Source of the DNA: Thermoleophilia bacterium
Lineage (GTDB): Bacteria; Actinomycetota; Thermoleophilia; Gaiellales; SKUG01
Direction: 5' to 3'
Length of the DNA: 64,000 nt
Assembly: GCA_039811765.1 (NCBI GenBank)
Contig: JBDHZF010000001.1
Location: 457-64,456, forward strand
Of this stretch, positions 18,585 through 21,500 are shown in pieces. Position 1 is the first letter of the stretch; each line of letters opens with the position of its first letter. The notes beneath the pieces were generated by a model, which saw only the letters and a list, made by a program, of their open reading frames with translations, did no database searches and was not told the DNA's origin. Position numbers and translations under genes: made by a program.

Positions 18585-21500
18585 GTGAGGCGCTTCGGGG
18601 GGATCACTGTGCGCACGCGAGCATCGCTCGCGATCGTCGCCGTGCTCGCAGCAGCTGCGTTCATCGCCGCTCCCACCGCAGCCGAAGCTGGCTCCAAGAA
18701 TCGCTCCACGGCGAAGAGCACGAAGCTCCCCACCTGGCTCTCCGACACGCTCGGCGATACTGCGTCCGCCGACGATTCGTCCCGATCCATTCGCGATGCC
18801 GACGCGTCGATTGGCCCGTTCCGAATCGCTCCGACGCTCAACCGCACGACCAAGCTGATGCGACCAGGCGGCTGGGTGGGCTGGCGAATGCTCGGCGCGC
18901 CAGCCGCTCCGGCAACGCTCCACGACAAGGGGGTCGTGTACCGAACCGGCTCGTACGATCTGGTGCAATACGTTCGTGGTTCGCGAATGCGCGAGGCAAT
19001 CGTCGTTCGCAAGCGCCAAGGCAACAAGGTGTGGCGCTGGCGGCTCTCGCAGAAGGGTCCCGGCGATCGCCCGCGCGTCGCCGCGACGGGCGAAGTGACG
19101 TGGGGCAACAACGCAGTGATCGAATCGCCGGCGCTGCACAAATTCAACGGCCGCAAGGTCCGCGACCTGCACTGGACGCTCAAGGGCGACGTGCTGTCGC
19201 TGCACTTGAACGATCGCAAGCTAAAGCTGCCGTACGTGATCGACCCGCCGGCCGGCCCGGACACGAAGGCGCCGGACGTGGTGTTCGACCACTTCACGGA
19301 GAACACGCCGCAGTACACCGAGATCGCGTCGACCGGCTCCACCCTCTACTACAACCCCGCGCAGCCGGGCTCGTTCGTCGTTTCGTACGTGGGCGTGGAC
19401 GATCTGAGCGGCATCGCCAAGGTCTCGTTCCCGAACCTCACGCCTGGTCCGGGCTGGAGCGCCGGCGGCGACGACACCACTGGCGCGTCGACGTCCGGCA
19501 ATGGCCTCAACGGCTCGTACCAGAACTACACCCCGTGCCCTGGCGCGTCGCCGGCGAGCGCGGCGTTCAGCGGCGTGGGCTACACGCGACTCGATCCCAC
19601 GATCAACTTCAACTGGGGAACCGGCGGCCCGGGCGCGCCGATCGCGAACAACTGCTTCACGGTGCGTTGGGTGGGCTACGTGGTGCCGCCGTCCACCGGC
19701 GCGTACCGCTTCCGAACGATCACCGACGACGGCATCCGCGTGTGGGTGGACGGCTACACGATGATCAACAATTGGACCGACCACTCGAGCACTACCGACA
19801 CGTCCGGCACGCTCACGCTGACCGCGGGCCAGCCGTATCCGATCGTCGTCGATTTCAACGAGAACGGCGGCGACGCGATCATGCGGCTGTTCTGGGACCT
19901 CCCCGGCGGCGCCACCACGTACGTGAACGTCCCGACGGCGAACCTCACGCCCGCGCTGAGCTACGACTGGACCTACTCGTGGAGCTCCGGCGCGGTGCAG
20001 CCGTCGCCCACGCCAGCGGTGACCGCCACCGACGTGACCGGAAACGTCTCCACCCCGAAGCAGTTCTCGGTGGTCGCGGATTCGACGATCCCAACCGGCG
20101 GCTCGATCGCATACGCCAGCTATCTCGGCTCGTCGACGTCCCAGACGATGACGATCGCGACTGGAACGGACGCCGCTTCCGGAGTGTCGAGCTGGCGGAT
20201 CGAACGGTCGTCGGCGACGTTGTCGGGCGGCGCGTGCACCGGCGCGTGGAGCACGTGGACCACCGTGTCGACGAACCCCACCGCTGGATCCGTCACCCTC
20301 GCCGGCCAGCCCGACCAGCAATGCCACCAGTACCGGCTCGTCGTGGTGGACGGCGTGGGCAACGAAGCGCCCTACACCGATTCCGACATCGTGCGCATCG
20401 ACGCGATCGCGCCGACGCTCGCCGGCGTGGACGATGGTCCCACGACCGGCGTGGACGTCGATTGGATCAACTCGGGCACCACGCTCGCGGCCACGTGGAG
20501 CGCGCCGACGGACGCCGCCAGCGGCGTGGCGACTCCGACCCGCTGGTGCTTGGCAACCACGATCAACGCCACCGGCTGCTCGGGCGGCATCGTGCTCGCG
20601 TACACCGGCGTGGGCGGCGCGACGAGCGGGACGTACTCGCCCGTCGCGTTCACCCAAGGCGCCACGTACTACGCGTGCGTGCGCGTGCAAGACAACGCGG
20701 GCAACCAGACGAACACCTGCTCGGACGGGGCGCGCTACGACTCGATCGCGCCGACCGCGCCATCCGTGAACGACGGCACGGGAGCAGACATCGACGTGCA
20801 AGCGTCGACCTCGACGCTGAACGCGAACTGGACTGCCGGGACGGACGCGGTCAGCGGCGTGGCGAGCCACGCGAGCTGCGTCACCACGAGCCCCACTGGC
20901 GCAGACTGCGCAGGCGGCGCCGTCGTGACGTGGACCACGCCGAGCGCGGCGACGACCGCGGCGCACACCGGCCTGTCGCTCGCCACGGGCACGACGTACT
21001 ACGTGTGCGTGCGCTCCACCGACAACGCCGGCAACACCGGCGTCGCAGGCTGCTCAGACGGCGTGCAGATCGACACGACCGGACCACTACCTCCCGCGTT
21101 CGTGTACGACATCGTCACGCCCTCGCCGCTCGACCAAGACTGGCAGGCCTCCTCCACCACGCTCGCGTCCACGTGGTCGACCACCACCGATCCGAGCGGC
21201 ATCCTTCGCTACGAGCTGTGCCTCACCTCCAGCAGCGTTGGCGCGGACTGCTCCGCCGGCGCGCTGCAGCCGTTCACGTCGACCGCGCTCGGAACGAACC
21301 TCACCGTGTCGAGCCTGTCGCTCGCCAACGGCTCGAAGTGGTTCGCGTGCGTGCGAGCCGTGGACACGCTCGGCAACGTCGGATCGGCGTCGTGTTCGGA
21401 CGGCGTCACAGTCGACGCCGCGGCGCCAACCACGGTGACGGTGAACGACGGCACGGCCGCCGACGTTACGTGGACGGCGACCGCGACCAGCTCGAGCGCG

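Follow-up and report, generated by a model that had tools for sequence, protein, structure and literature searches.

The giant gene and its layout

The window analyzed here is a stretch of 64,000 nucleotides from a Thermoleophilia bacterium (NCBI GenBank assembly GCA_039811765.1, contig JBDHZF010000001.1, positions 457 to 64,456 of the forward strand). It contains an open reading frame of 4030 codons whose product, a "large repetitive protein" made of immunoglobulin-like (Ig-like) repeats and predicted to be secreted, carries a PA14 domain nested inside the first (C1) of six copies of a repeated module that is called C in what follows. The interrupted module stands directly after a conserved N-terminal domain (the head domain) and is followed by a long stalk of repeats (Table 1).

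A Pfam search of the 4030 residues returned Big_13 (six stretches), Big_7 (five stretches), Big_3_3, Big_3_2, fn3 and one PA14 domain, and on this predicted domain content the protein would present the tandem Ig-like extender domains of a giant fibre. Every C module is followed by a module of a second type, D, and the D modules align with one another in a local MAFFT run. For the head domain (residues 41-223) Pfam returned no family. The N-terminus of the protein reads as a putative Sec-type signal, with a basic beginning, a hydrophobic core and the residues A-E-A followed by G. The G+C content at third codon positions (GC3) is 0.90 over the whole gene of 4030 codons and 0.92-0.94 across the region of the nested unit, and since it is high throughout, the reading frame is taken to be real and uniform. 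A frameshift or an assembly artefact was also considered as the origin of the arrangement, and is rejected in view of the single continuous frame of high GC3 and of the presence of the same architecture in other proteins.

A PA14 domain interrupts the first C module

An earlier note on this DNA, made from the letters alone, had placed a PA14 domain at about 19500-19950 and had described it as a loop insertion into the beta-sandwich of the first of six C modules. The analysis bears this description out in each of its parts. A hidden Markov model (HMM) of the C module, built from C2-C6 alone with C1 left out (approximately 134 positions), gives the same count of six modules; the PA14 domain, when its terminal strands are included, has the limits given in Table 1; the profile splits around it; and the loop insertion is supported by the colinearity of the sequence as well as by two AlphaFold2 models.

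The HMM scores its own five modules at 127-171 bits and matches C1 in two colinear pieces with PA14 in between, the first comprising residues 226-323 (HMM positions 2-97, 24.6 bits) and the second residues 440-508 (HMM positions 62-134, 22.3 bits). When the flanks are scored by themselves, the N-terminal one reaches 34.8 bits, the C-terminal one 28.6 bits and the two joined together 52.3 bits; the corresponding maxima over 1000 shuffles are 14.0, 11.4 and 8.9 bits, and no other Ig-like part of the protein exceeds approximately 17 bits. Excision of the insert in silico restores a single full-length match (HMM positions 2-134, 62.8 bits), and by this match C1 without its insert is assigned, on its profile, to the C-module family.

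The alignment of the C modules, which the earlier note had recommended as a check, leads to the same picture: given the uncut C1 together with C2-C6 and four C modules of other proteins, MAFFT opens, unprompted, one gap of approximately 150 columns opposite PA14. The identity of C1 without PA14 to C2-C6 is 25-33%, compared with 24-41% among C2-C6 themselves. PA14 is inserted in the loop that joins the GW.GGG motif to the Y.Y(S/T)(W/F) strand, and in the uninterrupted copies the length of this loop differs by 0-12 residues. Taken together, the colinear profile matches and the two models support the view that the flanks jointly make one complete C module, cut by PA14 at a loop of variable length.

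Table 1. Features of the giant gene and its product in the window
Feature	Residues	Position in window	Strand	Basis
Giant open reading frame, secreted Ig-like-repeat "large repetitive protein"	4030 residues/codons	18585..30677	+	Open reading frame list, translation, Pfam
Putative Sec signal peptide	1-35	18585..18689	+	Read by eye from translation
Conserved N-terminal head domain, ends LPYVIDP	41-223	18705..19253	+	jackhmmer
C1 N-half, five to six beta strands, ends in the GW.AGGDDT loop	224-304	19254..19496	+	C2-C6 HMM, AlphaFold2
PA14 domain, inserted in the C1 loop	305-457	19497..19955	+	Pfam PF07691, GLEYA, phmmer, Foldseek
D381-D382, position of the Ca2+-binding DcisD motif	381-382	19725..19730	+	Alignment to RsgI3 PA14-A
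F424-N-E-N-G-G-D430, equivalent of calcium-binding loop 2 (CBL2)	424-430	19854..19874	+	Alignment to RsgI3 YYQHVRA
C1 C-half, last three strands, ends DSTIPTGG	458-508	19956..20108	+	C2-C6 HMM, AlphaFold2
D1 module	509-615	20109..20429	+	Translation, repeat inspection
C2, uninterrupted C module	1511-1643	23115..23513	+	HMM, alignment
C3, uninterrupted C module	1884-2016	24234..24632	+	HMM, alignment
C4, uninterrupted C module	2223-2358	25251..25658	+	HMM, alignment
C5, uninterrupted C module	2456-2580	25950..26324	+	HMM, alignment
C6, uninterrupted C module	2676-2798	26610..26978	+	HMM, alignment

The C-module family and the conservation of the insertion

The C module is not covered by any Pfam model, and only sub-threshold hints to Big_3_2, Big_7 and ChiW_Ig_like were obtained for it. 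An unindexed profile search with the C profile recovers 1999 cluster representatives at E<=1e-3, of which 410 reach E<=1e-30, and proteins of 2000-7400 residues are numerous among them; what comes to light is a large family of Ig-like modules (approximately 2000 cluster representatives) that lacks a Pfam model. The members that carry names are from Thermoleophilia metagenome-assembled genomes (MAGs) and are annotated as "Large repetitive protein" or "Ig-like domain repeat protein".

The counts of nested units and head domains that follow refer to the best 150 of the 1999 representatives. Among these, the nested unit is found at the same loop in four other giant proteins, namely P0031 (3800 residues), P0092 (7439 residues), P0127 (4592 residues) and P0050 (2438 residues), of which the last has a divergent PA14 domain; the two of the four that have names are from Thermoleophilia MAGs. 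Excision of the insert, which measures 154-226 residues over the window protein and these four, leaves one full-length C match in each of them too, with 55.2 bits in P0031, 78.7 in P0092, 42.9 in P0127 and 24.3 in P0050. Because the nested unit recurs at the same loop in four other giant proteins, the insertion is regarded as old and conserved. The head domain, followed with jackhmmer, is present in 20 of the 150 proteins and is 31-42% identical to the window protein in the relatives that were compared.

A recent horizontal acquisition of the PA14 segment was also contemplated and rejected: GC3 is 0.93 in PA14 and 0.92-0.94 in its flanks, the window protein shows no compositional break that would point to a recent event, and the insertion is common to diverged relatives.

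Word-indexed protein searches with C1 plus PA14, with the C profile and with a profile of the nested head returned short PA14-only proteins, many of them with tandem PA14 domains, and five C-module fragments, all continuous at the insertion site; none of the proteins returned was nested. A scan of the contigs of a genome collection gave matches only through the PA14 peptide DPTINFNW, and no orthologue of the head.

Two further observations concern the relatives. The linker by which the chain returns after PA14 is longer in P0031, P0092 and P0127, whose inserts measure 179-226 residues compared with 154 residues in the window protein; the extra segment starts with "KPSD", holds cysteines and is missing from the window protein (window 19917-19955). 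Another member of the C-module family, P0115 (2315 residues), has three linear PA14 domains, two in tandem at residues 397-665 and one at residues 1110-1239, and none of them is nested; both linear and nested presentation of PA14 therefore occur in the family.

Structure prediction

Two models of the nested unit were computed with AlphaFold2. In model 1, based on an alignment of C modules only (10 rows), the flanks have a predicted local distance difference test (pLDDT) score of 73-96, and PA14, which has no alignment support there, one of 32-68. Alignments that mixed C modules with PA14-only sequences were discarded, as MAFFT misaligned them: with several PA14-only sequences added, whole C modules were laid over the PA14 columns, probably an effect of composition and of the beta-strand pattern. 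The alignment used for model 2 was instead bridged by the four nested homologues and was checked column by column. The mean pLDDT of this model is 83.5, with values mostly of 86-96 in the flanks and PA14 and of 80-91 in the blocks at the junctions; by part, it is 69-93 in the N-half of C1, 87-95 in its C-half and mostly 87-96 in PA14.

The structure prediction called for by the earlier note thus yields both flanks and PA14 with confidence, and the strands of the flanks are the same in the two models: 231-239, 245-250, 253-256, 262-271, 277-282 and 295-297 before PA14, and 458-466, 478-483 and 495-498 after it. From these positions it is deduced that PA14 exits the host domain ahead of the last three strands of the latter. 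The last strand of PA14 (454-456) runs nearly straight into the first of these host strands (458-466), which suggests that the junction is stiff. An Ig-like domain that is interrupted by a binding domain, and whose two parts make up one fold, is a split domain, and this is the arrangement found in C1 with its insert (C1[PA14]), as judged from the order of the profile matches, the excision and the confident models of the flanks.

Identity of the PA14 domain and its putative sugar site

The Pfam family PF07691 matches residues 306-444 (window 19500-19916) at 93.6 bits, the cut-off being 24 (E 1.3e-26, profile positions 3-140 of 147), and is overlapped by a Pfam GLEYA match of 31.9 bits. A Foldseek search with the model finds the PA14 domain of RsgI3, the sugar-binding ones of the repeats-in-toxin adhesins MpIBP and MhLap, and those of the fungal adhesins Flo5 and Epa1 and of anthrax PA, as well as 5j6y and 6m8m. 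The inserted domain is a PA14 domain both by its family profile, which lies above threshold, and by its fold, which is superimposable on solved PA14 domains. The closest of these are the dyads of RsgI3/RsgI4: a phmmer search of the PDB gives 6qe7 (RsgI3) with E 5.4e-48, and Foldseek aligns PA14 to the same entry over 151 columns (E 5.8e-13) with a root-mean-square deviation (rmsd) of 2.5 Å.

In sugar-binding PA14 domains Ca2+ is held by the DcisD pair and by CBL2, which sets the specificity, and the PA14 dyads of RsgI3/RsgI4 bind pectin or xylan via Ca2+ (PMC6852018). In the window protein, D381-D382 aligns with the TVTDDG motif of RsgI3 PA14-A and is kept in all four nested homologues, and E426 occupies, in the alignment to RsgI3, the position of the Gln/Asn Ca2+ ligand of CBL2. 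Such residues make Ca2+-dependent binding of glycans by this PA14 domain plausible. The neighbouring position, Asn425, varies among the nested homologues, being Asn in P0050, Ala in P0127 and Tyr in P0031 and P0092.

A variable head

In other relatives that bear the head domain, P0035, P0042, P0054 and P0081 among those compared, the LPYVIDP sequence is followed not by C1[PA14]-D1 but by an unrelated, unannotated module of approximately 200-300 residues. There are at least two unrelated types of these alternative modules, one with a "..GW..FPAG.W.F" motif and one with an "ND.L.AQV" motif, and they have no Pfam match. The stalk of the window protein (residues 1511-2910) is 61% identical to that of P0035 over 1413 residues and 49% identical to that of P0042, both of which carry an alternative module, and is 55% identical to that of P0031, which retains the nested PA14. 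In the comparison with P0035, only C1[PA14]-D1 (window 19254-20429) of the window protein lacks a counterpart. As far as these alignments go, it looks as if specificity modules were swapped while the fibre that bears them is conserved; such variability of the head is the pattern expected of a tip that determines specificity, and it brings to light a position at which orthologues seem to exchange binding modules.

Comparison with known systems

[quoted passage not shown] As in MpIBP (Marinomonas primoryensis), FrhA (Vibrio cholerae) and AhLap (Aeromonas hydrophila), the binding domain of the window protein buds from an interrupted domain of the Ig-like extender type in a giant fibre. In the RTX unit the two termini of the binding domain lie side by side and the binding site faces away.

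The differences are nevertheless considerable. The window protein lacks the beta-roll and the C-terminal signal for type I secretion (T1SS) and has an N-terminal signal of the Sec type; its nested unit (residues 224-508 of 4030) is at the N-terminal head, whereas in RTX adhesins the unit adjoins the beta-roll at the C-terminus and the N-terminus holds a retention module; the host domain, the C module, belongs to another family, one without a Pfam model; and the named relatives are Actinomycetota (Thermoleophilia), whereas RTX adhesins are found in Gram-negatives. The identity of its PA14 to that of MpIBP is only approximately 20%. Although its unit would work like the RTX split-domain unit, the window protein is not an RTX adhesin.

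PA14 domains placed inside another domain are also found in enzymes of glycoside hydrolase (GH) family 31, the alpha-xylosidases CjXyl31A (2xvg/2xvk), BoGH31 (5jou/5jov) and XacXyl31 (7kmp). In XacXyl31 the all-beta domain DUF4968 takes up residues 38-219 and 372-391, with PA14 at residues 220-371 in between (PMC8245568). The Foldseek alignments of GH31 alpha-xylosidase chains to the model are 266-277 columns long and take in the host domain as well as the insert, and the GH3 chains 3abz and 3ac0 (KmBglI) are among the fold matches. Beta-glucosidases of family GH3 also carry an inserted PA14. In the GH31 comparison the rmsd is 18-20 Å, and because it is so high the orientation of the domains is considered to differ from that in the GH31/GH3 chains. 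GH31 and GH3 proteins are, moreover, enzymes whose active site is shaped by PA14, whereas no catalytic domain was found in the window protein with Pfam or NCBIfam. Given the split domains of RTX adhesins and the nested PA14 of GH31, the view of the earlier note that such a presentation of the domain is unusual is not supported: the nested PA14 described here adds an instance from a new protein family and reveals no new structural principle.

Two other systems resemble parts of the arrangement. RsgI3/RsgI4 (Clostridium thermocellum, C. clariflavum; PDB 6qe7, 6qdi) share the DD motif and a loop of the CBL2 type, which reads QHVRA or NNTGN in those proteins and ENGGD in the window protein; theirs are tandem, linear sensor domains of a membrane anti-sigma factor, which are not nested and belong to no fibre. 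The A domains of the fungal Flo/Epa proteins (GLEYA/PA14) likewise give a long repetitive surface protein a PA14 fold at its N-terminal end; there the PA14 is at the distal end and binds sugar in a Ca2+-dependent manner through DcisD and Asn. In contrast to the window protein, these domains are terminal and not nested, and their proteins are eukaryotic and anchored by glycosylphosphatidylinositol.

Proposed working of the split module and its alternatives

It is proposed that C1 would be a split Ig-like sandwich, in which residues 224-304 and 458-508 fold together and PA14 (residues 305-457) buds from a loop, and that this unit, placed right after the conserved N-terminal domain, would stand at the head of a Sec-secreted fibre of 4030 residues. 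Since the chain runs into PA14 and out of it on one and the same side, the domain should be kept off the fibre axis by the split module, with the Ca2+/sugar site (D381-D382 and the loop 424-430) turned outward, and PA14 would serve as a carbohydrate-binding adhesive tip. Taken as a whole, the interpretation considered probable is that the giant secreted fibre has a tip that binds carbohydrate and that is held out by a split Ig-like module. Its topology is held with greater confidence than the whole, and the nature of the ligand and the choice of the distal end with less; the outward projection, the role as an adhesin and the assignment of the distal end are presumptive.

Several observations weigh against this interpretation. 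The predicted template modelling score (pTM) of model 2 is only 0.64, and the packing of the two flanks into one sandwich, that is, the contacts between them and the orientation of PA14, is a deduction from the models. Sugar binding is not assured, because Asn425 (window 19857-19859) stands where RsgI, Flo5 and Epa1 have the Tyr that stabilises DcisD, and because the DD motif belongs to the PA14 fold in general as well. Finally, the sequence offers no anchor: there is no LP.TG motif anywhere in the 4030 residues, whose C-terminus ends in ...NQTWTFVLP, and by the absence of a C-terminal LPXTG the protein would not be classed as a sortase-anchored Gram-positive adhesin; as for an RTX/T1SS signal, the only GGxGxD match is at residue 1578, none occurs near the C-terminus, and no RTX family is found in Pfam or NCBIfam.

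Because no anchor was found, the main alternative is one that accepts the nested topology as real and reverses the polarity of the fibre. The head would then be the cell-proximal end, where PA14 grips the cell's own wall glycopolymers and retains the protein, and the ligand-binding end would be the C-terminal region, where the last 258 residues make up a separate domain outside the repeats that shows weak similarity to InhA-like MAM; RTX adhesins, too, have their retention module at the N-terminus. This alternative is nonetheless thought unlikely, given that the unit after the head is swapped among orthologues whose stalks are 49-61% identical, a behaviour that fits a diversifying specificity better than it fits a conserved wall polymer, and given that the split domains of the literature mark ligand-binding regions. 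Far less probable still is the notion that the flanks are not one domain and that PA14 sits linearly between degenerate partial modules or linkers, their likeness to C being a remnant of repeat decay: P0115 does have linear PA14 domains between other domains, and the contacts between the flanks are a matter of modelling, but between them the flanks run through the C profile a single time, in the right order and with no overlap, two independent runs model both of them at pLDDT 80-96 and agree on their strands, and the arrangement is kept in four diverged proteins, contrary to what decay would produce. There is equally little to be expected from the idea that PA14 is an accessory to an enzymatic activity, as in the GH3/GH31 glycosidases, and not the tip of an adhesin. 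The nested PA14 domains with solved structures do include enzymes, and exoglucanase and xylosidase models of NCBIfam match below threshold; these matches, however, are far below their cut-offs, with the xylosidase one lying inside PA14 (residues 356-430) and the exoglucanase one in the Ig-like repeats (residues 2913-3096), and the 4030 residues contain no catalytic domain detectable by Pfam or NCBIfam.

Returning to the carbohydrate-binding tip on a split module, residues 224-508 provide a concrete boundary for the probable ligand-binding unit of a giant surface protein in a poorly studied class of actinobacteria, and the case suggests that the rule derived from RTX adhesins, to look for the split domain, may locate binding domains in unrelated giant proteins. 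A further proposal, made tentatively and with somewhat less than even confidence, is that a family of giant Sec-secreted, non-RTX fibre proteins of Thermoleophilia reached split-domain display independently, at an N-terminal head that acts as an exchangeable cassette. If this were true, fibrillar adhesins with different secretion systems and envelope types would share split-domain display as a convergent design rule, and searches for ligand-binding domains in Gram-positive giant proteins not yet characterised could use the split domain as their criterion.

Other features of the gene and its surroundings

The genes that neighbour the giant reading frame encode a resistance-nodulation-division (RND) transporter, a DUF3105 protein, a glutathione S-transferase (GST)-like protein, a glucose-methanol-choline (GMC) oxidoreductase and components of an ATP-binding cassette (ABC) transporter, and they give no hint of its function. 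Two parts of the protein outside the C modules attract attention. The C-terminal non-repeat domain of 258 residues (window 29901-30674) gives its InhA-like MAM match at 21.3 bits against a cut-off of 26.9. Residues 3011-3197 (window 27615-28175) match, in NCBIfam, an OmpL47-type beta-barrel domain with 66.5 bits against a cut-off of 40, at a place where Pfam has Big_13.

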